From NCBI GenBank assembly GCA_031835245.2, contig JAVKOQ020000068.1:186001-211493 (forward strand): 25,493 nt of DNA. Reading direction: 5' to 3'. The position numbers and the translations under genes are program-made. A model generated the notes under the pieces. That model was not told where the DNA came from and did no database searches. It was given only the letters and a program-made list of their open reading frames with translations. This stretch comes from Balamuthia mandrillaris (Eukaryota). Shown here piece by piece: positions 544 to 25,422 of the stretch (position 1 is its first letter; every line of letters starts with the position of its first letter).

Positions 544-1809
544 ATGAAGGCTATAAAGTGCGTTGTGGTGGGGGATGGCGCAATTGGAAAAACCTGCATG
601 TTGATGTCTTTCTCCAAGAACACGTTCCCGGAGTCCTACGTGCCCACCGTCTTTGACAATTTCAACACCGCCATCATGGTGGACGATGTGCCTTACAATC
701 TTACGTGAGAGTCATCCTTGCTATGTCTTTTTGTTTTCTTTCGTTTTCTTAACGTTTCCTTTTCCCCCTCAAAAAAAAAAAAAAAAAAAAAAAAACCAGA
801 CTCTGGGATACTGCTGGTACTTTGTTTGCCCCTTTTTGTTTCATCTTTCCTTTTATTTTTCTTTCTTATGTGAACTATTTTTTTTTTCTTTGATCTGCTA
901 AACAGGCCAAGAAGAATTTGATCGGCTAAGAGCGCTTTGTTATCCACAAACGGACGTCTTTCTGGTTTGCTTCTCTTTGGAGAACCCCAACAGCTTTGAA
1001 AACATTTCTCTTCGTGTAATGCCTCCCACTCCTCCTTTCTTCTCTGTCTTCTCCACTTTCCCCTCTCGTTCTCTATTTTATTCCCTCCAGTTCTCTCTTC
1101 TCTCCATGCTGTGTCGTTCTCTTTCGCTTTTCTCTCAAACTGAAGTGTTACTTTATCTTCGCGTTTATGCATTTGTATACATAGTGGCACCCAGAGCTGA
1201 AAGCTCATTGTCCAGGAGTACCGTATGTGTTAGTTGGCACCAAACTAGATCTAAGAAAAGACCCTAAAACATTGGAGAACCTGGAGAAGTTGAAACTCTC
1301 ACCCATTACCACAGAACAGGTTCGTTATTTCTTCTTTGTCCTTCCATTCGTTTTTTCTTTGCCACCCAGACAAACAACAGAGAAAGAATAAAGAAAAAAC
1401 AACATAAAAGAACTAGACAAGAAGAAGAAGAAGAAGAAGAAGAAGAAACAAGAAACAAGAAAGAAGAACAAGAACAAGAACAAGAACAAGAATGAGAACA
1501 AATAGAGAAACGAAAAGAGAAAAACGAAACTCGAAAAACAAGACAACGCAAAGCAGCAAGCAAACTCTTCGCTTATTATTTTAAAAAATCTAATAGGGCA
1601 TAAAACTGGCCGAGTCCATCGGAGCTTTTGCTTATTGCGAATGTTCCGCGATGACACAAGAAGGCCTAAAGAACGTGTTCGACGAGGCAGCGCGCTGCTT
1701 TGTGGCGTACGAGAATGAGGGAATGGAGGGCAGCGACGAGGAGGACGGCGCCGCTGGTCCTCCAGCGAGCAACAACGGGGCCAAAGGCAAATGTTGTGTG
1801 CTGTCTTGA
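544..1809 (+). CDS. Rho-family (Rac-like) small GTPase, 5 exons, 211 aa
   Basis: Exons 544-704, 800-816, 906-1015, 1185-1319, 1597-1809; all GT-AG, 636 nt. Motifs: G1 GDGAIGKT, effector [10 protein letters not shown]3 LWDTAGQEEF, G4 GTKLD, Rho insert [14 protein letters not shown]5 ECSA, C-terminal KGKCCVLS*. Confidence 0.96.
1418..1492 (+). repeat. (GAA)n/(GAACAA)n purine-rich simple repeat in Rac intron 4
   Basis: Read directly: gaagaagaa... followed by gaacaagaacaagaacaa. Confidence 0.9.
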
Positions 1810-2115
1810 AAGGCAAAGGAGGCATGCCTCTCTCGACTTCTATCTCTCTTATATTTTTTTAAAACGAGAAACTTTTGTTGTAAAAATAATAATAATCGTT
1901 TTTTTTGTTAGGCGAAAGACACAATCGATAACTATTCAAAATAGTTTGACGATATTATAGTCAGGTTAAGAAATAACGTTGATAATTCACTAAACTATCG
2001 ATATAATCCGCCTTAAAAGTTTCTCAGAAAAGTTTACAGTGACCCCTGAAAACAAAAAGAAAAAAGCAGAAGAGAGAACCAAAAGTAAAGTAGAGAGAAG
2101 AGAAAAAAAATAGGA

Positions 2116-2738
2116 ATGCAAGTAGCGGGGGACCAGTGGTCCTGCTCGGTGTGCACCTTTCTCAATGACAACCACAAAACCAAATGCGAGATGTGCAACG
2201 GCCCTTCTCCTTCCGCCCTTTTGAGCACTCTCTTTTCCCCTGCCTCTTCGGTTTCGCCCTCTTCTTCCTTGTCCTCGTCGACGCCTTCTTCCACTTTTTA
2301 TTCTCCTTCGTCCGCTCCTGCCTTTACCCCTTCTTCTACCGCCCTTTCTTCTTCTCCTTTTCCACCTCCTCTTCCCCCTGCTGCTTCTGTTCCCTACTTT
2401 CCTTCTTCTTTTCCTGTGCCCTCTTCCAGGCGAACAGACAGGTCAGAGATCAGAGCGCCCCCTTCCAGCGAATGCCTTAGAAGATTGGTCCTCGACCTTA
2501 AAGAGGTGCAGAAGAGCAAAGACCCCACCATTCATGTCTGTCCCGATGAGAACGACGTAACGCGAGTACAAGCCCTCATCATTGGCGTGGAGGGGACTCC
2601 CTATCATGGAGGCTTCTTTCTCTTTGGTTTGTTGATCTTTCTTTCGACCCTTTTTTTTCTCTCCATATCTCTAATTTTTTATTTGTTTTTTGTCATTTTG
2701 AGTTTGAGGCACACTTTTTTAACCATGTTGTTGCTCTG

Positions 2739-2780
<42 letters not shown>

Positions 2781-4621
2781 CTCCTCTCCTCCTTTCCTTG
2801 TGAACAGACATGCAGTTTCCGTCAGACTATCCATGGAAGCCTCCTAGGGTAACTTTGTGCGTTTTTCCCTTTGCCCTTCTACAACTCTGGGAGCAAACCA
2901 ACAGAATGAGTAACATCATCGTCTTAACAGGTTGACGACAGATAACAACACGGTCCGGTTTAACCCCAACCTCTACGCCTGCGGCAAAGTGTGTCTCAGT
3001 ATCCTTGGAACATGGGCTGGTTAGTTTATCGACTTTTCTTCATCTTCTTCGTTTTTTCTTTCTTTTTTTTTTTACAAAAATAATTAGGGCCAAGTTGGAC
3101 ATCCATACAAACAATGCTATCGACCTTGATGTCAATCCAATCGTTGATGAACGAGAAGCCATACCACAACGAGCCAGGCCATGAAGTTGAAACGAGGGCT
3201 GGCGACGTTCAGAATTATAACGATTGTATCGCCCACGAAACGTTGCGAGTGGCTGTCATCGGAATGTTGGAAGATCCGTCGATCCATAAAAGTATGTTAT
3301 CTTAACTCTACATACCGTATTTGTGGTTCTCTAATTTCTGTGCTTTGTTCCTTTGTTCTGTTTTGTTTCAAATAGAGTTCAAAGGAATAATGGGAAGAAA
3401 GTTCTTGGCAGAGTTCGATTCGTACTTGGCCAAAGCGGAGCAAGGCAGAGCTATCGATGGAAAACAAATGCAGGATCCATTTGGAGAGGAAAGAGGATAC
3501 TTCCGTTATGGCTCTTTGATTCCTCGTTTGCACGCTCTGAAGAAGAGAATCGAAGATCAAACGAACAACGAGAAAGAAGAAGAAGCCTCATCAGAATCTT
3601 CATCAGAGGAGGAATTCTCAGATGATGAAGACGACGATGAAGCTGACCCAAAAGGCAAAGAAAAAGATGATGAGCAAAAAGATGGAAAGAAAAACGAGTC
3701 AACAAATGACCTGTCTTCAATACAACAACCCGAAACAACCATAGAAACGAAGGTAACAGCAGGAGATGAAACCAAAAACAAAGACCAGAAAAACAAGGAA
3801 GATACCACTGAACCGTCGTCATCACCTTCCTTGCCTCCTCTTATTGAATCTGAACGCCTGAACAACGCCACCGACGATGCTTCCGAAAAAGAACCGACAT
3901 CGCCCTCCATGCCCGCCCTCGTTGAACCAGAACACCTTCCAACTTTTGCCTTTGAGTTCAAAGAAGCAAAAGAAAGTAGGGAAAAGAAGGGAGAGGAAGA
4001 GGAGATGGATCCAGACCTCCTTCTTGCACTGAAGCTCTCTGCAGAGCTCAACAACACATCACCAACACCTCAACTATCAACTCCTTTTGAGCTGGACGCT
4101 GCCCTCGCCATGAGCTTACAAGCTGAATGGAACGCCGCACCACAACATTATTCTACTTCTTCTACTTTTGGCGGGGGTAACAAATGGAGCGCGCATCATC
4201 ATCATTCTTCTTTATCATCACAACCTAGAAGTGGTGCTTCTTCAACAACAACAGCGACAACTCCTTCCACCAAATCGTTGAAAGAGCTGAAGAAGGAAGC
4301 GAGACAACATAAAAAATCGAAAGACTATGATCCTTCCGTCGTTTGTCTGATCTGCAAGCAATCCCCAAAGGAATACATCATCCCACCGGGTTGCGAGCAG
4401 CCCCACATCTATTGCTTTGCCTGTGCAGAACGCATCAAAACTCAGGCAAGTTCAACCAGAGGTCGTTTTGGGAACCGAGGTTTTGGTGACCGGTCCTCTT
4501 CCGCACCTGTGTTGCGATGTGTTCTCTGCAAATCGGTCTCTCATCTGGACTCGAATGGGGGTGTTGAAGCTCTCAAACGAAGAAGAAAGAGAAAGAGGAC
4601 TAGCCCAGGTTTATAACACCT

Positions 4622-4659
<38 letters not shown>

Positions 4660-5599
4660 CTCTCTTCTCACCTTCGCCATTTTTGTTTTAATCAAATTAA
4701 TAGGCGTATGCCCAGAACACAACGAACCATTCAACTTCTTTTGCATGGATGAAGCTGTTCTCATCTGCCACTTGTGCGTTGGAGGAGAGCACAGTCGTCA
4801 TCGTTGCGAAGCTTTGGAAGAGGCCTATAACACATTGACAGACAAGGTCGAGGATAGTTTGAAAGTGTTAGAGGGCAAGTGGACGAGCATGGAAGGCTTT
4901 GTTCAACAAATGGAGGAGAAACAGAACAAACTCGAGGAGGCAGTCGCGGAGCGAAAGAAAGAGGTCAAAGATCTGTTTGATCAGCTGCGAGCGATGTTGG
5001 ATGAGAAAGAGAAGGAAGTGGAGGCAGCTATGAACAGAGTCGAAGAGCAGAAGAGACGGCAGATACAAGGTGCTAAAGAAAAGGCACAACAACAGATGGA
5101 AAGCATCCCTGCCTCTATCTCAGCTCTTAGCGCTGCGTTAGAAAAACGGAAAAAGTACCATCACAGTTCTAAAATGTCGTCATCGTCATCAACAACAACG
5201 ACAACGACAACGAGCACTGAAAAACCGCCATCAAAAACAGAAGCAGAAGATGAAAACGAATCACCAGCTCTCTCTTTCTTACGCCAGTACGAGGATAAAG
5301 AGGAGACCGTTCGGCATCTCTGCAACATGGTCATGCCAAAGCTTAACGACAGCGTTTCGCAAATGCCAAACCCCGTTTACCTGCGTGGCATTTCTCACGT
5401 CATCAAACGAGCTCAGTACATCGACTCCCCTGAGGGATACATTCCAACTCCACAACAAGGCGGCGTTGGTGGTGGGTACCCTGCGTTATACGGAGGCATG
5501 GCGGGTGCTTATTTTGAAGGCGATGAGGACGATGACGAGGGCTCAGACGGGTATGAAGATGAGTATGGTGGCGGATGGGGGAATACCGCTCCTTACTGA
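2116..5599 (+). CDS. UBE2Z: NZF - UBE2Z/USE1-like E2 - UIM/MIU - RING - B-box - coiled-coil multidomain protein (E2/TRIM-like E3 fusion), 6 exons, 993 aa
   Basis: Exons 2116-2626, 2808-2856, 2931-3019, 3088-3291, 3376-4608, 4704-5599 (2982 nt). [20 protein letters not shown] core: [58 protein letters not shown], catalytic Cys codon 2992-2994. UBE2Z-type extension: [35 protein letters not shown]3HC4 RING at 4344-4529. B-box: [32 protein letters not shown] helical coiled-coil segment follows. The gene symbol refers to the E2 domain only. Confidence 0.93.
2741..2777 (+). repeat. (CT)n microsatellite in intron 1 of the E2-TRIM gene
   Basis: Read directly. Confidence 0.95.
4626..4656 (+). repeat. 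(CT)n microsatellite in intron 5 of the E2-TRIM gene
   Basis: Read directly. Confidence 0.95.
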
Positions 5600-5699
5600 G
5601 GCTTTGGGCCACCTCCTTCTTTGAAACAACCCTGCGCACAAAGATAACTCTTTTATAACACATTTGTATCAAAGCAAATCCTTGGGTTTGAAGTTTGGG

Positions 5700-8600
5700 T
5701 TACTTTTGTTTTGGGGTGGGTTGTTGTGGCGATGTGTTGGAGAATAACGTTCTTGAGAAGAGCACCGACAATCGTTTGGTGGGGCTGCTGCTCATTGTTT
5801 TTGTTTTCGTTGTTGGGTTGCTTGGTGAGACAGGAGCAGGCAAAGTCTTAGTTGGCGACGGAGGAGCAGGAGTGGGAATGGTATCAGTCGACGAGGGAAC
5901 ACTGGGTTCGGAGAGAGGCGTAGTAGAAGGAGCAGTAGAACCGTTGGCTGTGGAAGTGGGCAAAGGAACGGAAGAACACTGTTCGGCATGGGGTTCTTTT
6001 GGAAGAGAGGGCAGAAGGTGGGGTGTTGTTGGTGGAGGTAGAGGAACGTGAGGTATCACAGAGGATGAAGACGCTTGGTCATCCTCTCGGGTGCTGATTG
6101 TTGACACAGAGGCAGCCGCAGAGGGAGGAGGGAGGTCAGATGTTTCGAAAGCAAGCTGGTATATGTCGGTAAGACTCTCCACCAAGTCTTTCATGGCTTT
6201 CTTGCTGTGCTGCAACCGGTCAGCAGCGGTGTTGGCCACTAGCTTTTGTTGCTGGTACTGAACCACGCCAAGAACTTTTGGCATCAACAACGAAAGCAGG
6301 GGTACATTTTTCGCGGTCATAAGCGCGGGGGGTAGATAGATCATCAGTTCGTTCTGGAGATAGTCCTCTTCGTTTGCTTGTTCTTCTTCCATCTCCTCAT
6401 CTTCTGCTTTGTGTTCGTCTTCTTCTTTCATCTTTCTTGACATGCGAGTCTGGACAGAATCAGAAGAATCGGTGAGAGGGAGAGATGGTTGGGACTGCAC
6501 TTTGTCATCTCCTTTGCCTCGACGAACTTTGGCTCCAATAGTGTTCCACAGTTGCAGTCCCCCTTTTTTGGGACTGTCTTTCATTCTCTGTTCCTCTTCC
6601 ATTACAATCCGATGTTCTTCTTCTCGTTTGCGTTTTTCTTCCTTTCGTTTATCTCGCTGCCTTTGTCTCTGCAGTCGCAGCTTCTTGATGTCAGTTGCCG
6701 TTTTCTTTATGTTCTGCAATTTCTTGCTAACCAAATACTCAATCCTCTTATCATATGGGAGCATCAACATAAACTCCCAATCTTCCTTGTCGCCCTCTTC
6801 CTCCTTTTCTTGTCGCTTTTCATCCTGTTGTTCCTCTTTATGTTCTTTTTCAAGTTCTTCGTGTGGTTCTGTTGCCTCTTTAATGACCATTGAGTCATTG
6901 TGCGTTTGGTGAGGTTCAACTTCTTCCCCCTCTTCCTCTTCCCCTCGTTTTTCTGTTCTTTCCGTAACCAATTTACGACACTGAGCAAAGTGAATGCGTA
7001 ACCTCTCTTCATCATCTTCCTTCGCGTCGCTGCACTCATAGACCATGCAAAGGTCCATTTTCATTTTGGTTTGGGCTTCTTCTAACATGTTTCGGATTAG
7101 CGCTGGCGAAGAAGAATCCGAAGATGAGGAAGGAAAGCTAGATACAGATATGGAAGCTCGACAGGGCGAAGGAGAAACACAAGGAGCAGAAGAAGAAAGA
7201 GTCAAGGATCGAGGACGTCGACGTCTTAACGTGTGAGGGGATGAAGAAGACGCAATAGAAGAAGAGGATTCAAGGTGAGGGAAGAAAGCATCGAACTCCG
7301 CGTTTAACCGCGTGATAGCTTCGTAGATGTCAGTTAAGATCTCGAGTTCAACTCTCAGTAATCTTTTTCGCATAAACTCGAAGTGATGTAACTGTGCCTC
7401 TAGTCTTTGTCTTAAAGCGGACTCAACGTTGCGAAGAACGAGAGAATCTTTGCGTTGAGTAGGAACGTTGGATGAAGTATTAATGAATGAGGCTGTCATC
7501 TCTCGTAAGCGAGATTGTTGAGCTTCAAATTGCTGTTGTAATGCTTGCTCAATCTTCACCGCTTCCTGTACATTTTTAGTTTTTAAGTCCACAGAACAAG
7601 AAGAAGATATAATGGGAGGTAAAGGATAGGTAAGGTACCGCAAAATCAGTGGTTAAGGGGGACACATTTGACTTGCTGGTAAGAAAAGAAGTTGTGGAGA
7701 AAGAAGGCAGTGGAGAAGGGTTGAGAGAAGGAGATTTTGCTTCAGGAGTGAAAGATGAGGACTGTTGTGCTTGCAAAGTAGAGAAAGTATTTTGCAGCTC
7801 ATAATTGGTAGGCATTGTTTGGCCGCCTGGTTCTTTGAAGAAGCAGAACGAAGTAGATGCAATAACTGAAGGTGGGGGAGAAGCACGCTTTTCAAGAGAA
7901 GGGTGTCGAAGCGAGGCAGAGGCGGATGATGAAGCTAAGGAAGATGAACCAGAAGATGAGCGAACCAGAGAAGATGAGCGAGGACGAGAGGGATCTAAGG
8001 ATGGAAGCACCCAAGAATTCTCCTCTTGGAGAGAGTACGCAGTGTCTACTGCGAGAACGTTTTCTTCGTACTTTAAAAGCAGTTGGCTGAGATACGACTC
8101 CTTTTGTAGGATAAGTTGATAGCATCTAGTAAGTTGTTCTGTTGATGAGAAGGAATTGAAGTTTTCCTTCTTTTGAGTTGTTGGTTGTGCTTCTGTTGGG
8201 TTTAAGAAGAAAATGGAAGACGAAGAAGAGGAGGAGGAACGTGCTTGCTCTTGGCAACTGTACAAAACGTGTTTGTATTCAGTGGCACGTTTCCACCGCT
8301 CTACAGCAACTCCACATTCTCTGCAAGCTGTTAACATAGGGGGCGGTGAAGGATTGTTGGTATGAGCCTTTGTTTTTGTTGGTGTTTGTGTTTTGCTTGT
8401 TTTGGTTGTTCTTCCGTTGTTGTTACTGTTGTGTTTCAGCTGATTGTTTTGGGTTGACGAGAGTGAGGTTTGTCCGGGAATTGGAGACGTTTCTGCGGCT
8501 TCTGCAGAGGTTAGATAATTGGCTGAAAGAAGAGCGTATATCTGATCCTCTTCCAATGGTATCACGTTTAAATTTAATTCTTTTTCTTCTTTTTCTTCTC

Positions 8601-9746
8601 GTTTTACATCGCTTTCATCCACGCTGTTGTTGCTTTTGTCGTCAAGTGCACTTTTTGAGATTGAGGAAGAAGAAGAAGTAACCGCAACAGGGTTACTGTT
8701 GCTGTTAACGTTGCGAGATTCGGAGAGAGAAGAAGAGGAAGAAACTGATGGTGGGGATAGGATGTGAAGAGATACGGATGGCGTCGCACAGTTTTGGCAA
8801 AAGTGTCGTTTGCAGAACTCGCATTCCACCCTACGGAGCTCAAAAAGACCAAAAGATGCACTGGTGACAAAAAAAGCGGTGAAGGTTATAAGAAAGACGG
8901 GAGGAGAAGAAGAACAATTACTAAGAAAAAACACAACATCAATAACAGAGAACTAGAACAAAAAAATAACACAACGAACTTGCAGAGAGCGCAGCGTTTG
9001 GAGGAGATGGGGCTTGGAGGCGGCACATTGTTACGGTGTTGCTGCCTCTGTTCGGCTGACTTCGTGTTATTAGAGCGTTTGAAGAAAGAAAGGAAGGTGC
9101 GTTTCTCTTCTTTCTTCAACGTCTCTTTCAAGTGTTGCAATGATAACTACAAAAAGCAAACATTTAAATTAGAACAGACAGAAAAGGATGGGAAAGAAAG
9201 AAACGACAAGAAAGAGGCAACAAAGGACAAGAAAAACACGAACTTCTGCAAGCCTTTGAATGATGGCAGCAACCCGCTCCTCTCGAGCAAGAGCGCGAGC
9301 TTTACGCTGTTTCAGGAAGAGAGGCGTCTTATTTCTGGTAACCAACATCCCTCCTCTGTTTCTGCTGTCCTCCCACAACCCGCTTTCTCTTTGTTGTTGA
9401 GTCGTGAAGCTGAGTAGCAGCGCAGAAGGAGAGGCAGAGGAGGAAGAAGGAGAAGGAGGAGAAGAAGGAGAAGGGAAAGCAGCGTTATTGTTCAGGTTGT
9501 CTGCTCTCTCTTCAGGTGGTTGAGGTTGGCGCAAGAGTGCAGGAAGGGTCATGGGGGTGACAGCTTCTGCTTCTTCTTCCAAGGTTTCTGTAGATGAAAA
9601 AGAAAAGAGAAGAGAAGAGAAAGGACAAGTAGAGATAAATACTACATGGAAGAAACGAAGAGAACATAGGACAAGTATTCGAGCATACCCCATAATAATT
9701 GCTGAAAAATGGCAGAGTGAGGAAAACCTCCTCCTCCCTCCTCCAT
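5700..9746 (-). CDS. Rabenosyn-5/Vac1-like protein with a degenerate, split FYVE-type zinc finger and long coiled coils, about 1218 aa
   Basis: Exons (minus) 9746-9689, 9587-9244, 9146-8980, 8860-7639, 7565-5700 (3657 nt, in frame). Zinc ligands CALC..CEFC..FCQNC...ACREC. The upstream 'RNKTPLFLKQRKAR...IIQRLAEL' resembles the Rabenosyn pre-FYVE helix. The first exon is the least certain; ATG 9552 is an alternative start. Confidence 0.72.
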
Positions 9747-10688: not shown

Positions 10689-13600
10689 ATGGCGTTCATC
10701 AAGAAACGGTTGAGCGAGAAGCGTAAGCTGAGTTTGAGCAAAGGTGAGTTAACTTTATGCGCTTTCAATGGTTCAACTGCTCACCGTTCTCATAGATGCT
10801 TTCACCACGTCTCGAGGTAGAGAGAAACAAATCGGAAACTACGTGCTTGGTCAAACTATCGGAGAAGGGCGGTATGGCAAGGTAACATGTTTGCTTCCTG
10901 CTCCAACAGTTCTTTCTATAATTTTCTGATCTCTCTGTTCTTCTTTCCTTCTTGCTCCTGGTTACTCTTGCTTCTATACTTCTCTTTTGCCATGCGACAG
11001 GTCAAACTGGCCAAAATGAAAGAGACAGGCCAAGTGGTAGCCGTTAAAATAATGAAGAAAGCGAACCTAGAGAAGGCGGACTTGATACGGATCAAACGAG
11101 AGCTGCGGATAATGACTCTTCTTGACCACCCTAACATCGTTCAGCTCTATCAAGTCATCGACACTCCCGACACAACGTCTATCGTCATGGAATACTGTGA
11201 AGGCGGGGATCTCTACGACTTCATATCCACGTATAGACGGCTATCCTTGCCAGAGGCGCTCAGGATCTTTAGGCAGATAGTCGCTGGCCTTCTCTACTGT
11301 CACCAGCACTATGTCATACATCGTGATGTACGTCGATGTTAGAAATTCCTTACGTTTTCACTCTCTCTGTTCCTAACATTGAACCAACTTTCTCTCCCCC
11401 CTCTCTCTCTCTCTCTCTCAAACAGATAAAACCTGAAAACCTGCTGTTAACACCTGATCGGCAAGTTAAGATAGGGGACTTTGGGTTTAGTAGGAGTTTC
11501 AATCCTCATGACGCCATGGAGACAGCTTGTGGATCCCTGACTTACGCCGCACCTGAAGTGATCGCTGGCAAGGTTGCTCGTTTTTGCCTTGTCCTTTCTT
11601 CCTTCTTGCCCCTTCCATCACTTCTAGTTGGATTCCTCTGCTCATTGCTATTTTTAACGTCAGGGTTATCTTGGACCAAAAGCAGACGTATGGTCTCTGG
11701 GTTGTGTGTTATATGTTCTGTTGACCGGGTCTCTGCCTTTTGACGGGGCGAACGACTTCGAGGTCATTCCAAAGATCCGCAAAGGGAAGTTTCAGGATAG
11801 CGAATACTTGGATGAAGGAAATATGCGAGAGCTTATCACTTGTATGCTCAACCCCGATCCACAGAAGAGAGCCAACCTGGAAGACATCCAAAAGCACCCC
11901 TGGACTTGGTCAGACAAAAGTATGTTGGCCATGCTGGTTCGTCCCTTCGCTAATGCCATCACTGAAAGGCGTATACGGGCGTGGCAAGTGTACAAAGGAA
12001 GCGCCAACTTTGGCAACATGAAGGACAGAGAGTTATCTTCGAGGTCTTTGACCTCGGACCAAAGCATAACTGAGGAAGCCGCAACAGATATTGAACCATC
12101 TTCTTTCCTAGATGCCTCGCGCTCCTTCACTGCCGCAAGCGCCTCTTTGATGACGGAATACGGCAGCGATGACTCCATGATTGCTCCTGCTCCCTCCTCC
12201 ACCAGAACTGCCAGTGGTGAAGACAGCAAGAAAGGTAGCCTCTCCAAACGGCGGAGAAGAGAAACTTCTCGGCGCAGCACAGCACTCGTTTCGATCTCTG
12301 ACTCGGAGCTCAATGCGCAATCTTCGGAGACGTTGACAGCCAAGTCACGACAACCATCCACCAGGCGAAGAGGATCCAGTCAGAGCGGTCGCGCAGGACA
12401 GGCTGTCAAAGGCAAGGGAACGCTTGAGAACGGAGAAACTGCGCCCCAGGAAAGGTCCAATTCAAGCAAAGACGAACTTGGATTGCGAGACAAAGGTAAA
12501 GATAAAGTGTCATTGCAGGCCTTTGTTGACGAAGATGAGAAAGTAGGAATCGTAAAGAGAGGAGTGGATAACAAAGAAAGCGAAGGGTATGATAACGAAG
12601 AAGCAGAAAGACACAACAAACCAAGAATAGACTCGCGAGACCTGACAAGGACGGAGGAAAAGCGGAGAAAAGAAAAAGAGGTGGATGCAAGGGGAAGAGA
12701 GAAAGGAGGGCAGGGAAGAGATGGTACCACAGCAGACAGCCCCAGAGACAGATCCAAAGAGCAGTCACGAGAGCGGGCCAGGGAAGCCCCAAAGAAGCAT
12801 CACACGAGATCCATACCACACCCTGGGCTGGCCGCACGTCCCGCCTCTCGGCAGCAACGCTCACACTCAGCCACGGACCGACCTGCTAAGCTACTGCTTG
12901 ACCAGATCAAGTTGGATGACACAAGGATTCGAAGCGGTACTGTTGACCATGACATGAGTGATAGCGTGGGCGGTGGTGCAATAACAACGGCAACAGGAGA
13001 TGGTGAACACATAGGAGGATCTGGAGTCACAGGAGGAATGGGAATGGCGGACGCTGCCAGAAGCCGGAGAGGGACCATCGTGGCAGCAGAAGTGGTGGAG
13101 ACGGCGGAGGGGGGAGTGGTCATTGAGAGAATCGAGGAGGAGGATGGTACCATCATAACGCGGGTTCGTTCGAGGAGTTATTCTCTGCCAGAGGCGGACA
13201 TCGTGAAGGAAAATCAGCTGCAAGATGATGACACCATGCCAGCAGAGGAGCTAGACAGCAATGGCAACAGCAGCAGCAACAGCGGCAGCAGCAAGAGCGG
13301 TAAGAAAGAACGGCGCAGCAGAACGAGTAGTAGCAAGAGGAGTGGCCTTAGCACCAGCGGAGGCAGCAGTAAGAAGAGCTCTCCTTCCAGCAGCAACAAG
13401 GTATCTCCTGCCAGGTCACCACGCGGCATCAAAACGTCTCCCACTAGACGTCGAAGGATGCCTGACCCTTACAGATACGGAAGGCCCAACAGATCAGGCA
13501 GTGTCGACTACGCTAGCCTGCGAGAACCTTCTGGAGAGGAGGCCGAAAGCGTAGTCACACGACTGCGAAGCAGCAGCACCGCCCATCGGACTCCACCTGC

Positions 13601-14039
13601 GGCCTCTGCTGCGGCCAAGTACCAAAGAGACAAGCTCTCGCGCTCGTCGGGAGGCCACAAGACCAAACCTGCTGCAAAAGAGAAAAGCGGCGACGCCCTC
13701 CGACAGGACAACAGAGAGCTATCCGTTGGAGGTGTCAAGATGAGAGTACGAAGCAGCAGCAAAGAAGTAAAGACAAGGATCCTTACGCCAAGGGGCTCTG
13801 CTGCGCTGCCTCCATCTTCTCCTCTCCCCCCTCACACTGACGCCACTCGCTCCCGTTCATACTCTCAGGACGATGGCATTGAACGAACGAGATTCATTGT
13901 TCTTGCCTCGAGAGAGATCGTGGAGCGGCAAGGGTCTGGCATGTTGGCCTCCCCTTCCTCCAAACTCTCTACCTCCTCTATCCTGGCTGAGAGTGGTTTA
14001 CACAATGTACAGACGAACAACAAACGAGACCACAGATAA
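10689..14039 (+). CDS. CAMK-group, AMPK/SNF1/MARK-like Ser/Thr kinase with a long disordered tail, 5 exons, 996 aa
   Basis: Exons 10689-10743, 10796-10881, 11001-11327, 11426-11572, 11664-14039 (2991 nt). Motifs: IGEGRYGKVK, VAVK, HRDIKPEN, DFG, ETACGSLTYAAPE, YLGPKADVWSLG, GSLPFD. An in-frame TGA at 10638 precedes the ATG. Confidence 0.93.
11401..11419 (+). repeat. (CT)n microsatellite in kinase intron 3
   Basis: Read directly. Confidence 0.9.
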
Positions 14040-14997: not shown

Positions 14998-15172
14998 TTG
15001 CCGATGGCTTTCTTCTGTCTTGGTGTATAAACGATCAAGATCTAATGTAAGAATGATCTGAAATCAACGAATAGAAAATCATAAATGAAAGTAAGGGACG
15101 CCTTAAACTTCCACCTTTTGCCCAAAAGAGAGAGAGAGAGAGCAAAAAAAAAACATTTTCACTTGAGGGTGG

Positions 15173-16308
15173 ATGGGAGTAACCACTGCCGGAGCCTCTA
15201 CCTATGAGAAAGCAGCTATTGGGCTGTCCGTCGGACTGGTATTTGTGTACCATGCGTGGTTCTTTTGGCTTGTGGTGTTCCGAGAGCAAAGGTCCGTTAT
15301 CGGCCTGAACTTGTACTTCCGGAGAGAATGGGCCAGACGCATTCTACTGAAAAAGAAGCTGCCCCCAATTATTGGCGTTCAAACCTTGCGAAACACCATC
15401 GTCTCCTCCAGCTTCTTTGCCACCACCAGCATCGCTATTGCTGCCGGAATATTGAGCATTGGTCGGTAGGGAGAGTACCTTAGCTCCTTTATGTTTTGAA
15501 ACAAAACCACTTGACTCACTTGAACCCTTTTGGGTCCCTTCCTGTCACAGTTGTAAACCCAGATCATAACAAAGATGGCTTCCTGGTGCTGAAGCTCATT
15601 ATCTTGGCCATGCTCTTCGTCTTCGCCTTTTTCTGTTTCGCCCTCTCCATACGCAACTACAACCACGCCAGCTTTATCGTTGCCGTCCGCCCTCCAAAGG
15701 AAGGCTGGCACCCTCCCCCTCACAGGCTCTCCAACCTTTATCGTAAGCTACGGCACAAAACCGGCAAAAAGAAAACAAAGAAGAGCAAAGCCAGCAATAA
15801 CAAGCAAGCCAGCTTAACAACTTTTGAGAAGAAAGAAAAAGACGTGGATAAGGAGCAGGAGGAGAAGGATACAGGAACAGAAACGGACATGGGGGCAGAA
15901 ACAGAAACTGAGACAACTAATGCCGGAGGAAACACTTTGGCAGAGGAGTTCGTGGACGGCGTTGGTGTTCGGAAAGAGCGACAGGCAGAAGAACCAACAA
16001 CTGAAACCTCAACAGAGAGCAGGAACACAACAAATAACGATACGGAAGAAGATGGCGGTAGTTCTTCAGAGAATGATTCTTCAGATGGGCATGGCGCAGA
16101 TCATGGCGTGCTCGAAGTGGAAGTGGAGCTGCAGCATTACATGACACTGAAGAAGATGTTGGTGTGGGGCAGTATCTATTGGACGATGGGCATTCGTTGT
16201 GTGTACTTAGCAGTGCCAACAGCACTGTGGTTGTTTGGTCCAACATGGTTGTTGGTTGGTATTTTTTTCACCATTGGTTTCACCTTCTTTCAAGACTTTG
16301 TTCTCTAA
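15173..16308 (+). CDS. DUF599-family multi-pass membrane protein, 2 exons, 348 aa
   Basis: Exons 15173-15461 and 15551-16308 (1047 nt). Family-like motifs YHAW..IGLN..RREW..VQTLRNTI..SFFAT, RNYNHASF and GIRCVYLAVP.ALWLFGP; four hydrophobic segments. Confidence 0.85.
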
Positions 16309-21265: not shown

Positions 21266-22503
21266 TTAGGAGGTACTTGTTGGAATGATACCTCCCAATA
21301 TGCCGGCTACTGCTATTACGACCACAATCAACACTATGCACAGTACTAGTATGCAGATTTGTCTCTGTCGTGTTTAGAACAGAATGTAAGATAGAGAAAG
21401 AGAGCAAACAAGTTAAAAAAGAATTACAGCAAGAGAAGCGTTACCCTTCTAGCCATGCACTGCCGCTTTTCAGAAATAGCCAAGTCTTTAACAGCTGTCT
21501 CGGTGTACGCCTTGGTCTGAGATACGCTGTGCTCGATCTGGTCGATAAGGTCGCCCTGCGTTTCAACAAGGATGGACATGTCCATGAAAAGTTGCTGCAG
21601 CTCCACAATGCTTTTTTCCAGGTTTTTGATGTCGTTCTGTTTCTCCTTTAGGAAGTCTAATGCGTGGACGGCATCCTCATGCTTTCGGTCCTCCATGATC
21701 TGCCTTTGAAAGATGGCTTCAGCAGCATCTGGGCTTTGCTCTAGAATCTCATCCAGTTCCTCTTGAGTTGCGTCTGGCTTCACTGTGGTCATACGCAAGT
21801 CAGTACAACAAAACAAATGACCAAGAAGCATGAAACAAAAAAAAAAACAACAGAGAGAGAGAATGAAGAGATAGAGAGACAAAGAGAACAAACCCAGCTT
21901 GACTTGCCGCAAAATGGCTTTCCTGGACTGAGAGTCAGCTTCGGTGAGGGCGAGCTGGTACTCGCTCATGAGGTCCATAAACTTCCGCACGACAGAGCCG
22001 TGCATGTTCACTCGAATGCGGCACAAGGAGGGGTCGTTGTTGTGTTCCTTGGTGAACTGGTCGTTCTCCTTGCGGATTCTTTTCAGCGCCACTCTCATCT
22101 CTTGCGCGGTGTTGTCCATTTCTTCTCTGATCTTGCTTGCGTCCCTTTTCAATTCTTTTTTTAAATAAGCGAGTTAGGGACGGCCGAAAACCGAGGCAGC
22201 CAACAAAAAACTTGAGGCTAAAGCAAACAGAGAGGATGGCTTACTCTTTATTTGTTCAGTGCTTGTCGTGGTGAGAATGTCGGCAAAGAGGCGTTTCAAG
22301 GTGACGAGGTTCTTGGTGAGAAACTGCATGTCTTCTTTCATCTCTTCGATGTCCTTCAAGAAATCCTTGAGCTCGTCCATCTTCTCCAGCTCTTCTTCAG
22401 GGAGCTCGCGGTCGCTGCCCCTTGGCGTCATTTCAATGTCTGACTCAGACACACTGCCGCTCGAGGCAGTGGCCTCCAAGAACTCCTTCATCCTGTCGTT
22501 CAT
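21266..22503 (-). CDS. Syntaxin (Qa-SNARE, syntaxin-1/SYP1-like plasma-membrane type), 4 exons, about 318 aa
   Basis: Exons (minus) 22503-22245, 22154-21894, 21782-21445, 21364-21266 (957 nt). N-peptide MNDRMKEF, Habc helices, SNARE motif LEKSIVELQQLFMDMSILVETQGDLIDQIE with zero-layer Q, C-terminal TM ICILVLCIVLIVVVIAVAGILGG. The last few codons are less certain. Confidence 0.93.
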
Positions 22504-22997
22504 TTTTTGTGTGTGGATTCTTTCTGTTTCTGCCCTTCTTTCTCAACGATCTTCTGCACTACCAATTTTTTTTTCAAGAAAAAAAAAAGTAGCGCTAGCT
22601 CTTCTTCGTCCTACTAACGATACCGTAACTGGGTCCCTGCCAAACTGACTTGTGTGTGCAAAACAAAACAAAAAAAAAAAGCGCCACCTCAAAAGGCAGG
22701 TAAGCTCCTGAAGGTGAGTGCGTGCGTACAACCGTTCCTTTTTGCCGCCGCCGCTGCAATGATTTCTTTTTCTTTCTTTTTTTGTTGGCGGTTTTTCTCT
22801 CTGATCTACATCGATCTTCCGCTAAACAGTTCTTTTATTCCATTGGTCCAATCTTCCGAGCACACGTGTGCAGCGCATCCGTGACGACGCGATAACAAAT
22901 GAATGAAAAAAAAATCCAGCCAAAAAAAACAAGCGCAAAAAAGCAAGAAGAAGAAACGCTGCCAACAACCCACCCCAAGTTGTTGCCATCTGTGAGG
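22504..22997. promoter_or_regulatory. Putative bidirectional promoter between the syntaxin and helicase genes
   Basis: 494-bp gap between head-to-head ATGs. Inferred. Confidence 0.5.
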
Positions 22998-23407: not shown

Positions 23408-24477
23408 TCCTTCTCTTATCTTCGGAGATAAAAGGAATACTACGACCGGTTTGCTACGTTGTTGACGTACGAGTTGGAAGAGGACATGGCACAGATGCAC
23501 GAACGGCTGCGTAAATGGGGCACGCAGCGGCTGCAAAGAGAGGGAATTACACTGTTCTCGCTTGTTGCCAAACACAAGGGTTCGCTTTTTAATGAGCGCA
23601 TCGTGCGGTTGACTCCGCAGCGCGCCACAGAGCTTCCCTATCACCGCTTTTCGCAAGGCGACATGGTCTGCTGCGCTCTTTTGCTCCTTCTTTTGTTTGT
23701 TTTCGCCGCTCTTTTGCTTTCCTCACTGATGGCGGAGGAAACGGGACTAATCGCGCTAACTGCTGACTTACTCAGGTGGTACTGAGCAGAGATGATCCAT
23801 TGTCAGAACGAACGGTGGACGGTACTGTGTTGGAAAAGAAGACCACTTACATCAACATTGTGGTGCGGGACCTACCACGAGAGCTAACATTCGGTACATG
23901 GGTTCGTTGCAGACTTCTTCTTGACTTTTTGCTCTGGTTGTGGAAATCCGTATTAAAGACCTGTACAACCATCATGCGATGACTGTAATGCCAAGAGAAT
24001 GGACAAAGGAGCCAATAGAGTTACGCACGACCGTATGATGGAAGCCTTGGCCATCTTTACCTCCAACGAAGTGATACCCGAGAACTCAGTGTCTACTAAC
24101 AGTGGAGAAAGTTGCCGTGGTGGAAGCAGCAGCAGCAGCCAAAGTAAAAGCGGTTCTTCCTCCACTTCAAGTGCATCTAGCAGCAGCAACAGTCGTGCCG
24201 CTTCTTCTTCTAGTGCTAGTTCTTCCAAGAAAGAAGTGATGATGGGAGGAACGCTTCTTAGAAACATCATACTCGGAAACGTTTGGGGCAACGACTACAA
24301 GGCAGCAGCTGCAAAACCCCCTGAAGGTCTCTCTGAATATTACAAGAAAAGCAACTTTCCGCCCGACTTTGACACGTGGCGGTTGAACGATAGCCAACGC
24401 CAAGTTATCAGAAGCGTGCTCACGCGGCGGCTTACCCTCATCCAAGGCCCACCCGGCACTGGTTCGTTCTTCTCCCG

Positions 24478-24522
<45 letters not shown>

Positions 24523-25422
24523 AACACAACTCTATCATTCCTGTCCCAGATTATGTCCTAATGTTCAATTCCCATCTCATCTTATCCCTTTATCGCTCTG
24601 CATTGCAATGCAGGAAAAACCTTCACGGCGATCCATTTGATGCGGCTGTTGGTCCATTTATGCAAGAGCAGAGTACCGGTACTCTGTACCGCTGATACCA
24701 ATGTCGCAGTGGATAACCTTTTGCAAGGACTCTCCGATTTTGGCATACGTGCCCTTCGCGTTGGCAGACCTGTTAAAGTAAGAGAAGAGCTGCGTGGGCT
24801 GAGCTTGGATGCTCAAATCCTAGCACATCCTCGTACTGCGGAGCTGACTAAACTACGCGATCGCACCGTAGAACTTTCAAACCAAATTCCTGAGTTAAAA
24901 GACAGCGCCAAGTACGATGCTTTGGTTTCACAATTGAAGAGTAAAGCTACCGTTAAGAGCTCTAACCTTTTCACTTCAAAAAGGAATATTGCACATATGG
25001 ATTTACAGAGTACTTGGGCCAAATTGAAGGAATTAGAGAGCAGAATAGCAAAGGAGATTCTAGATGGCGCTCAAGTTATCTGCGCCACTTGTATTGGCGC
25101 AGGGCACGAGTTGCTCCGGAATCGCCAATTTCCTATTGTTATCCTTGACGGTAAACCCACAAGTCATCCTTGTGAAAGCCATTCTGTGTATATTAACAGA
25201 CACATTCGTACTTCCTACCCTAGAGTCTACACAAGCAACAGAACCAGCCAGCTTATGTCCTCTGGTGCATGGTTCAAAGCACGTAGTCCTGATGGGTGAC
25301 CACTTCCAACTGCCGCCAACCGTGATATCACCAAAAGGACAGGAAGGCGGCCTTGGAGAAAGTCTTTTTTCTCGCCTCATTAAACTGGGTATCACCACTC
25401 ACATGCTTGAGATTCAATATCG
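22998..25422 (+). CDS. UPF1/IGHMBP2-like SF1 (DNA2/NAM7-type) helicase, 5' part (continues beyond the window)
   Basis: Exons 22998-23210, 23278-23340, 23435-23665, 23776-23901, 23996-24461, 24614-24911, 24984-25150, 25224-25422. Motifs: Q LNDSQ, Walker A QGPPGTGKT, Ia TNVAVDNL, Ib VICATC, Walker B ILDESTQATEP, III GDHFQLPP, SLFSRL, LEIQYR. Confidence 0.92.
23366..23404 (+). repeat. (CT)n microsatellite in helicase intron 2
   Basis: Read directly. Confidence 0.95.
24480..24520 (+). repeat. (CT)n microsatellite in helicase intron 5
   Basis: Read directly. Confidence 0.95.

Follow-up and report, generated by a model that had tools for sequence, protein, structure and literature searches.

A UBE2Z-type E2 joined in one chain to a TRIM-type RING, B-box, and coiled coil in Balamuthia mandrillaris and other amoebozoans

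The fusion gene and its transcripts

The stretch of Balamuthia mandrillaris DNA analyzed here (the window: 25,493 nucleotides of about 46% GC, eukaryotic DNA with introns) carries on its forward strand a gene of six exons (2116..5599; exons 2116-2626, 2808-2856, 2931-3019, 3088-3291, 3376-4608, and 4704-5599) which joins a ubiquitin-conjugating enzyme (E2) of the UBE2Z type to the RING, B-box, and coiled coil (RBCC) of TRIM-type ubiquitin ligases (E3s). Joining the exons gives 993 codons and a stop, and all five introns are GT-AG and 68 to 181 nucleotides long; the model is supported by the spliced open reading frame (ORF), by splice joints seen in part in RNA, and by alignment to a transcript ORF of Echinamoeba. 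The fusion gene is real, transcribed, and conserved.

The protein begins with an NZF zinc finger (residues 5-33, 2128..2214; Pfam PF00641, 28.4 bits against a cutoff of 27) in which T14-F15 and M26 form the TF motif and distal hydrophobic residue known as a ubiquitin-binding signature (PMC12805371, in the passages on NZFs), so that binding is predicted from sequence. There follow i) the UBE2Z-type UBC core with its LA, LB, and LC features (residues 116-247, 2461..3179, exons 1-4), which Pfam UQ_con matches in pieces on three exons and which includes the catalytic C208 (2992..2994) at the position of C188 in human UBE2Z; ii) the UBE2Z-specific C-terminal extension (residues 248-345, 3180..3557), which crosses intron 4; and iii) a poorly conserved linker of about 260 residues (3558..4322; about 100-260 across the family), predicted to be disordered from the alignment and from a low predicted local distance difference test (pLDDT) in the model of a relative, P0003. 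Ahead of the RING lie two helices (residues 496-510, 4008..4052, and 523-537, 4089..4133) which, set against the consensus, look closer to MIU than to UIM motifs; the first is predicted to bind ubiquitin, and the second aligns with a similar pre-RING helix in most relatives. The pattern behind them (an acidic-led helix with central Ala and Leu) occurs in 8 of the 9 full-length family members described below, P0152 being the exception, and was tuned post hoc on these same sequences; Pfam gave no match to MIU or UIM helices, and MIU has no InterPro entry according to a passage of PMC13015453.

The C3HC4 RING (C608-C669, 4344..4532) has K670 at the linchpin position and a long, variable, Arg-rich insert between ligands 6 and 7; it falls below the Pfam cutoff in Balamuthia (zf-C3HC4_3, E 0.0074) and in every member scanned. 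A basic run (residues 685-692, 4575..4598), with 6 to 8 Lys or Arg per 8 residues in all nine members, is a possible nuclear localization signal or contact for nucleic acid or an acidic patch. The type 2 B-box (C698-H728, 4709..4801; Pfam PF00643, 35.7 bits against a cutoff of 24.1), whose pattern is likewise kept in 9/9, leads into a long coiled-coil helix (residues 731-845, 4808..5152; about 170 Å if continuous) and then a short helix-linker-helix (5267..5425; alignments and the P0003 model) which we liken to the H2-L2-H3 fold-back region of TRIM proteins. Beyond these last helices there is only an acidic, Gly- and Tyr-containing tail up to the stop codon (5597-5599); a C-terminal substrate domain is lacking.

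A preliminary description of the locus, made from the sequence alone, had proposed the 993-codon ORF with this order of domains and had placed the RING in one uninterrupted exon with the last part of the UBE2Z extension; exon joining, Pfam, and the relatives agree with the former, exon 3376-4608 is indeed open throughout, and the spacings given for the RING and B-box ligands hold as written. Two of its assignments stand in part. The catalytic Cys motif is present as claimed, but the catalytic residue is its last Cys, C208, and not C204, whose position is occupied by Asn or Asp in relatives; and the two ubiquitin-binding-like helices are there, but are MIU-like rather than UIM-like, with ubiquitin binding a prediction.

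Onto 1700-5900 we mapped three raw RNA runs labelled as the same species (3-5% of each was sampled) together with contigs from a further run, presumed to be RNA; this placed 148, 118, and 57 reads and 21 contigs. The splice joint 2856>2931 was seen in all four sets, 3291>3376 in three runs, and 4606>4702 in one contig of the run guessed to be RNA, so that RNA shows 3 of the 5 joints of the gene. Introns 1 and 3, both at repeats skipped by the mapping, are not among the listed RNA joints; both are supported by the gap-free alignment to the Echinamoeba transcript ORF, and the position of intron 1 is also common to a metagenome locus, L003. None of the RNA molecules placed on 1700-5900 spans from E2 to RING. 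Exon 5 has RNA depth in all bins for two read runs; the seven listed indels are all multiples of three (adjacent +2 and +1 rows counted as one); and among the 40 substitutions listed (with 46 more beyond the listing), the 35 coding variants are silent in 13 of 15 cases in folded domains vs 10 of 20 in linkers and tail. A misassembly or transcript break within 3376-4608, which the preliminary description had named as a danger, is thus opposed by two-run depth throughout the exon, frame-keeping indels, and orthologous transcripts. The same runs show many variants of intermediate frequency and a divergent 3′ haplotype, which suggests heterozygosity, polyploidy, or a mixture of strains.

Relatives, family assignment, and origin

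A search with exon 5 retrieved P0001, an 896-residue transcript ORF of Echinamoeba exundans colinear with the Balamuthia model (32% identity over 896 columns, E 2e-131). A phmmer search of P0001 against 1.84 billion representatives gave 11,264 matches, the best 150 of which were listed, and word-indexed searches scored about 8,000 candidates each; the family RING occurs in 7 of the 151 proteins collected, with the UBC or its extension also present in 5 of the 7, and cluster look-ups and a profile search added further members. A metagenome scan began with 47 candidate stretches and ended with 6 loci, of which five resemble one another at 89-100% in DNA; the model for L003 has 884 residues and 16 GT-AG introns, and shares 3 of the 5 Balamuthia intron positions and phases.

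Leaving out near-duplicates (P0004, P0049, and L001/2/5/6), nine full-length proteins carry UBC, extension, RING, B-box, and coiled coil: Balamuthia, L003, P0001, P0002, P0003, P0152, P0153, P0158, and P0159. The fusion is present in transcript ORFs of Echinamoeba (Tubulinea) and of Nematostelium gracile and Soliformovum irregulare (Evosea, Variosea), so that the search for this architecture which the preliminary description had proposed brings eight further full-length proteins, three of them from named species in two amoebozoan phyla. The catalytic Cys and all 8 RING zinc ligands are kept in 9/9 members, and identity of the Balamuthia protein to the other eight is 61-77% in the UBC, 43-60% in the extension, 42-72% in the RING core, 34-54% in the B-box, 17-40% in the coiled coil, and 6-19% in the linker. 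The NZF is found only in Balamuthia; in its place 7 of the 8 relatives have helical MIU-like motifs at the N-terminus, P0002 being possibly cut short. That one likely ubiquitin reader has been exchanged for another in this position suggests that reading ubiquitin belongs to the function of the family.

Several partial relatives were also seen. L004 (1-1042), a metagenome fragment of 60% GC that comes from yet another organism, repeats the family order from the end of the extension through MIU-like helices to the start of the RING. P0045 and P0053 consist of the family RING, B-box, and coiled coil but lack the E2, as truncated gene calls or real stand-alone forms; in P0045 the linchpin residue is Arg and the basic run is weaker. 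In viral contigs, neither the 45 candidate stretches for the RING nor the 7 for P0016, a protein described below, yielded a relative.

Assignment of the E2 to the UBE2Z type, as the preliminary description had it, is borne out by tests on two relatives, P0001 and P0003 (over this region Balamuthia aligns to P0001 with one 1-residue gap). The best match of P0001 among PDB sequences is human UBE2Z (E 1e-66, with the extension included), ahead of BIRC6 (7e-33) and UBE2O (2.5e-25); and the E2 of an AlphaFold model of P0003 (44-row alignment, pLDDT 73.6, predicted template modeling score 0.43) overlies human UBE2Z (PDB 5a4p) with a target template modeling score of 0.96 and a root mean square deviation (rmsd) of 0.9 Å over 225 columns. 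Pfam scans of members found no BIR or similar domain of the BIRC6 or UBE2O kind, and we reject a BIRC6 or UBE2O orthologue: the UBC is UBE2Z-type and the accessory domains were not found by Pfam.

The claim of a TRIM-type RING, B-box, and coiled coil is likewise upheld by the RING ligands, the Pfam B-box, and profile and structural matches to TRIM proteins. A model of the Balamuthia RING (pLDDT 74.7) had as its top match the RING of TRIM2 in Foldseek (probability 1.00, E 0.015; no match at E <= 0.001) and that of TRIM23 in VIA-align (Z 7.2, rmsd 3.4 Å, 67 aligned), both modest scores, and most of the structural matches listed are RING or U-box domains. A family profile of the C-terminal half matches the B-box and coiled coil of TRIM5, TRIM28, TRIM3, TRIM25, and TRIM72 (best E 1.4e-10; TRIM5, TRIM28, and TRIM3 at 1e-10 to 4e-9); Atlas features match TRIM54/55 clusters at 0.94, full-length P0001 giving no usable Atlas match; and Pfam TRIM_CC matches one member at E 4e-6, below its cutoff. 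A standard TRIM is rejected, as the RBCC is C-terminal behind an E2 and a short acidic tail takes the place of a substrate domain.

In a tree of the E2 region (LG+G4, with unsettled bootstrap; 60 rows, of which 16 were chosen and 44 were the best-scoring others covering 200 or more profile columns) the nine members all fall within a 14-row clade with support of 85/92, not starred. The remaining rows of the clade are the fragments P0006 and P0007, Flabellula baltica P0014, its sister P0032, and P0016. A Variosea group (99/88) and an Echinamoeba-Flabellula group (96/83) both match named phyla, and Balamuthia pairs with L003 (100/98) outside the two. The fusion therefore looks old in Amoebozoa, and the simplest reading, for a tree whose root is not fixed, would be that it arose in an early amoebozoan, was inherited vertically, and was later lost in places. 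In Flabellula (P0014/P0157) the B-box and coiled coil have been lost, and the E2 bears a Cys-rich, RING-like finger that is divergent. The in-clade E2 of P0032 also has a divergent Cys-rich RING-like finger, with no coiled coil and with a hydrophobic, possibly membrane-spanning C-terminal helix; P0016 (344 residues, UBE2Z-like) has MIU-like helices and a short repeat, with no RING detected.

A Pfam scan of 24 longer matches uncovered separate fusions: UBC, extension, and C3HC4 RING in P0037/P0154; UBC, RING, and PUB (a p97-binding domain) in P0055; and UBC, RINGv, and UBC in P0044 of the diplonemid Namystynia. The amoebozoan clade does not include the E2s of P0037, P0055, and P0044, nor are these proteins matched by the family RING profile, so that RINGs seem to have been added to UBE2Z-type E2s on more than one occasion. 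Also seen were i) a weak RING before the UBC in P0090 from a tick, a possible gene-model artefact; ii) among the UBE2Z-like matches, two or three tandem UBCs in P0005, P0011, P0013, P0040, P0064, P0073, P0084, P0087, and P0150, some of them perhaps assembly or annotation duplicates; and iii) UBE2Z with a piece of a PP2C phosphatase in P0017/P0156 of Didymodactylos carnosus, possibly a gene-model fusion.

Proposed mechanism and its rivals

We favor, with a probability of roughly 60%, a dimer that both reads and writes ubiquitin and needs no separate E2, since its RING would activate the E2 tethered to it. A ubiquitin-activating enzyme (E1), probably UBA6-like, would charge C208; the coiled coil, to judge from its likeness to TRIM structures, would form an antiparallel dimer; and the flexible linker of 100-260 residues would let the E2, on which the sites for E1 and RING overlap, come away from the RING for recharging and then go back either to it or to the RING of the partner chain. 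The linker is long relative to the 170 Å coiled coil, so that the geometry would allow contact in cis as well as in trans, and the RING could make way for the E1. As there is no C-terminal substrate domain, targets would be found through ubiquitin already attached to them, which the NZF or MIU-like helices may bind; that ubiquitin might then be extended or spread, as in RNF168 or in UBE2O in its E4 mode, and the basic run may direct the protein to the nucleus. Discharge of the fused E2 by its own or its partner's RING is what we infer from the following.

At the position of UbcH5 Phe62, which contacts the RING in the account of PMC9954413, all nine members have Trp, as do 5 of 124 other matches (kin, and so not independent); human UBE2Z bound 11 RING domains in a two-hybrid screen described in PMC2736652; and an engineered RING-E2 chimera was highly processive with E1 alone (a passage of PMC10630674). 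We also count in favor of the proposed mechanism the single domain order of the nine full-length proteins, the conservation of the RING core, the mostly silent coding variants of the folded domains, the MIU-like pattern in 8 of 9 members, the retention of the RING-like finger on the Flabellula E2 despite the loss of B-box and coiled coil, and the separate UBE2Z-RING fusions.

Several points weigh the other way: i) the last RING loop is C-V-L-C, where a Pro is usual in the RING consensus; ii) at the linchpin 5 of the 9 members have Lys and the other 4 have Ser, and even Arg-to-Lys impairs Arkadia (PMC9954413, same account); iii) the Pro of the SPA motif is kept in 0/9 members vs 54 of the 98 scorable among 133 other E2 matches, which are kin and not independent; iv) TRIM RINGs often need RING dimers, and an antiparallel dimer keeps the RINGs apart (as discussed in parts of PMC4864278); v) the related class IV E2s BIRC6 and UBE2O are E3-independent (so described in PMC13015453); vi) the loop-4 Trp also occurs in P0016, the clade member in which no RING was detected, and thus marks the clade rather than the fusion; and vii) the MIU-like pattern, as noted, was fitted to the sequences it describes and is missing from P0152. 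These departures from the usual linchpin, SPA, and Pro contacts could mean either a private, co-adapted interface or an E2 and a RING that do not pair. When the P0003 E2 was modeled as a complex with its RING and two zinc ions, without alignments, the score was 0.17 (mark 0.34), which we do not count for or against.

We wish to stress that a wider claim, an ancestral amoebozoan one-chain E2-TRIM ligase with a private, co-evolved interface in place of linchpin and SPA contacts, with targets chosen by ubiquitin alone, and belonging to a recurring and undescribed E2-RING class, is offered more tentatively than the mechanism itself.

Distinctly less probable, but the strongest competitor, is a machine of two E2s, in which the RING recruits a UbcH5- or Ubc13-type E2 in trans and the fused UBE2Z primes or monoubiquitinates on its own like BIRC6 or UBE2O. 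The absence of the SPA Pro from the fused E2 in 9/9, the E3-independence of the class IV relatives, and the likeness of the RING model to TRIM RINGs solved with UbcH5 and Ubc13 would all fit; but the canonical E2-contact residues of the RING are changed too, a tethered E2 should outcompete free ones, and RINGs joined repeatedly to UBE2Z-type E2s are what direct pairing would leave behind.

We consider it unlikely that the RING is weak or structural, serving oligomerization or, with the basic run, docking on chromatin or nucleic acid, while the RBCC is a localization scaffold for an E3-independent E2. Ser at the linchpin in 4/9, an Arg-rich insert and basic run that flank the last zinc ligands, and a RING under the Pfam cutoffs in all members scanned are as such a scaffold would have them; yet conservation of the RING core is close to that of the E2 extension, Lys is kept at the linchpin in 5/9, and active RINGs without a linchpin exist.

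Far less likely again is that the favored mechanism holds but serves some ubiquitin-like modifier in place of ubiquitin, much as FAT10 or ubiquitin is carried by human UBE2Z, which is charged only by UBA6. Determinants of UBA6 recognition are mixed in Balamuthia: the UBA6-contacting residues of loop LA (human N172 and T174) are kept, but those of helix A (K105/R106) are not and are kept in 0/9 members; the loop-LA residues vary in Variosea, and the NZF has a ubiquitin-binding signature. Least credible of all, and in our judgment negligible, is an artefact by misassembly or by merging of two neighboring genes, for which the missing E2-to-RING read, low RNA depth, and unseen joints of introns 1 and 3 might be cited, but against which stand both parts within one open exon, depth in every bin of exon 5 in two RNA runs, frame-keeping indels, the same fusion in independent transcript ORFs of three named species, and the three intron positions common to L003.

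Known systems and neighboring genes

Built of known parts, the protein belongs with E2/E3 hybrids. It shares with human UBE2Z/USE1 (PDB 5a4p) the NPN active-site motif, the LA, LB, and LC loops, and the extension; but human UBE2Z is a stand-alone E2 of 354 residues, to which the nine full-length proteins add RING, B-box, and coiled coil, and K105/R106 and the SPA Pro are not kept in the family. With TRIM ligases (TRIM2, 3, 5, 23, 25, and 28, MuRF/TRIM54, and the TRIM37 subfamily) it shares the order RING, B-box2, and coiled coil, whereas in TRIMs the RBCC is N-terminal and comes with a substrate domain, and here it is C-terminal, behind an E2 with an intact active site, and a substrate domain is absent. 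The TRIM37 subfamily is found eukaryote-wide. Non-animal TRIMs are described as TRIM37-like RING-B-box-MATH proteins (Marin 2012, PMC3503706, in part), and the single TRIM of Dictyostelium is TRIM37-like (a passage of PMC5758549).

BIRC6 and UBE2O likewise hold a class IV UBC within a large chain, and UBE2O recognizes substrate-bound ubiquitin, but the passages of PMC13015453 on their intrinsic E2s name no RING, and the amoebozoan family adds RING, B-box, and coiled coil. The engineered gp78RING-Ube2g2 (active with E1 alone) and UbcH5B-MIB1 RING3 (PDB 8v0d) are also E2 and RING in one chain, but are artificial and have neither ubiquitin readers nor a dimerizing coiled coil. RNF168, which combines a RING with MIU-type helices and amplifies ubiquitin (as PMC2699339 relates in part), is a similar reader-writer lacking a fused E2, B-box, and TRIM coiled coil, and we claim no homology. 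FANCL and the RWD-RING ligases also join a UBC-like fold to a RING, but their UBC-like domains are catalytically dead, while the catalytic Cys is kept in all nine E2-TRIM members.

The literature searched, which lay mostly outside subscription journals, did not describe any E2 joined to an RBCC; what is known are UQ_con-UBA proteins, fusions of E1 to E2 in ciliates, and architectures resembling TRIMs in both Entamoeba and ciliates, and the passages and supplements 2-5 of PMC4327156 that list them make no mention of E2-RING. The architecture is thus apparently undescribed, though database entries may show such proteins without discussion. The preliminary description, which called it unfamiliar, agrees with these searches as to the E2-RBCC fusion; the joining of UBE2Z to a RING is not unique to this family.

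A natural chain of E2, RING, B-box, and coiled coil kept across amoebozoan phyla offers a natural cognate RING for a UBE2Z-type E2, no RING complex of which is among the PDB matches listed. It would allow activation by the RING in cis and in trans to be compared for TRIM dimers within one polypeptide; it adds a non-animal RBCC family which, with a RING under the Pfam cutoff, would escape surveys that rely on Pfam; and it is a possible template for compact engineered ligases.

Elsewhere in the window Pfam identifies a Ser/Thr kinase with a long tail (10821-14039, + strand), a DUF599 protein (15167-16308, +), a syntaxin (21424-22542, -), and pieces of an AAA_11 (UPF1-like) helicase (23957-25299, +), all ordinary eukaryotic genes with no evident link to the fusion gene. 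Long convergent ORFs (5700-8952, -) end about 100 nucleotides from the fusion stop and contain a Cys-rich finger-like motif, with no Pfam match at E 0.001. Directly upstream of the fusion gene is a spliced Rho/Rac-like small GTPase (545-1810, +), with a Pfam Ras match on one exon and a Cys-containing, CAAX-like tail.

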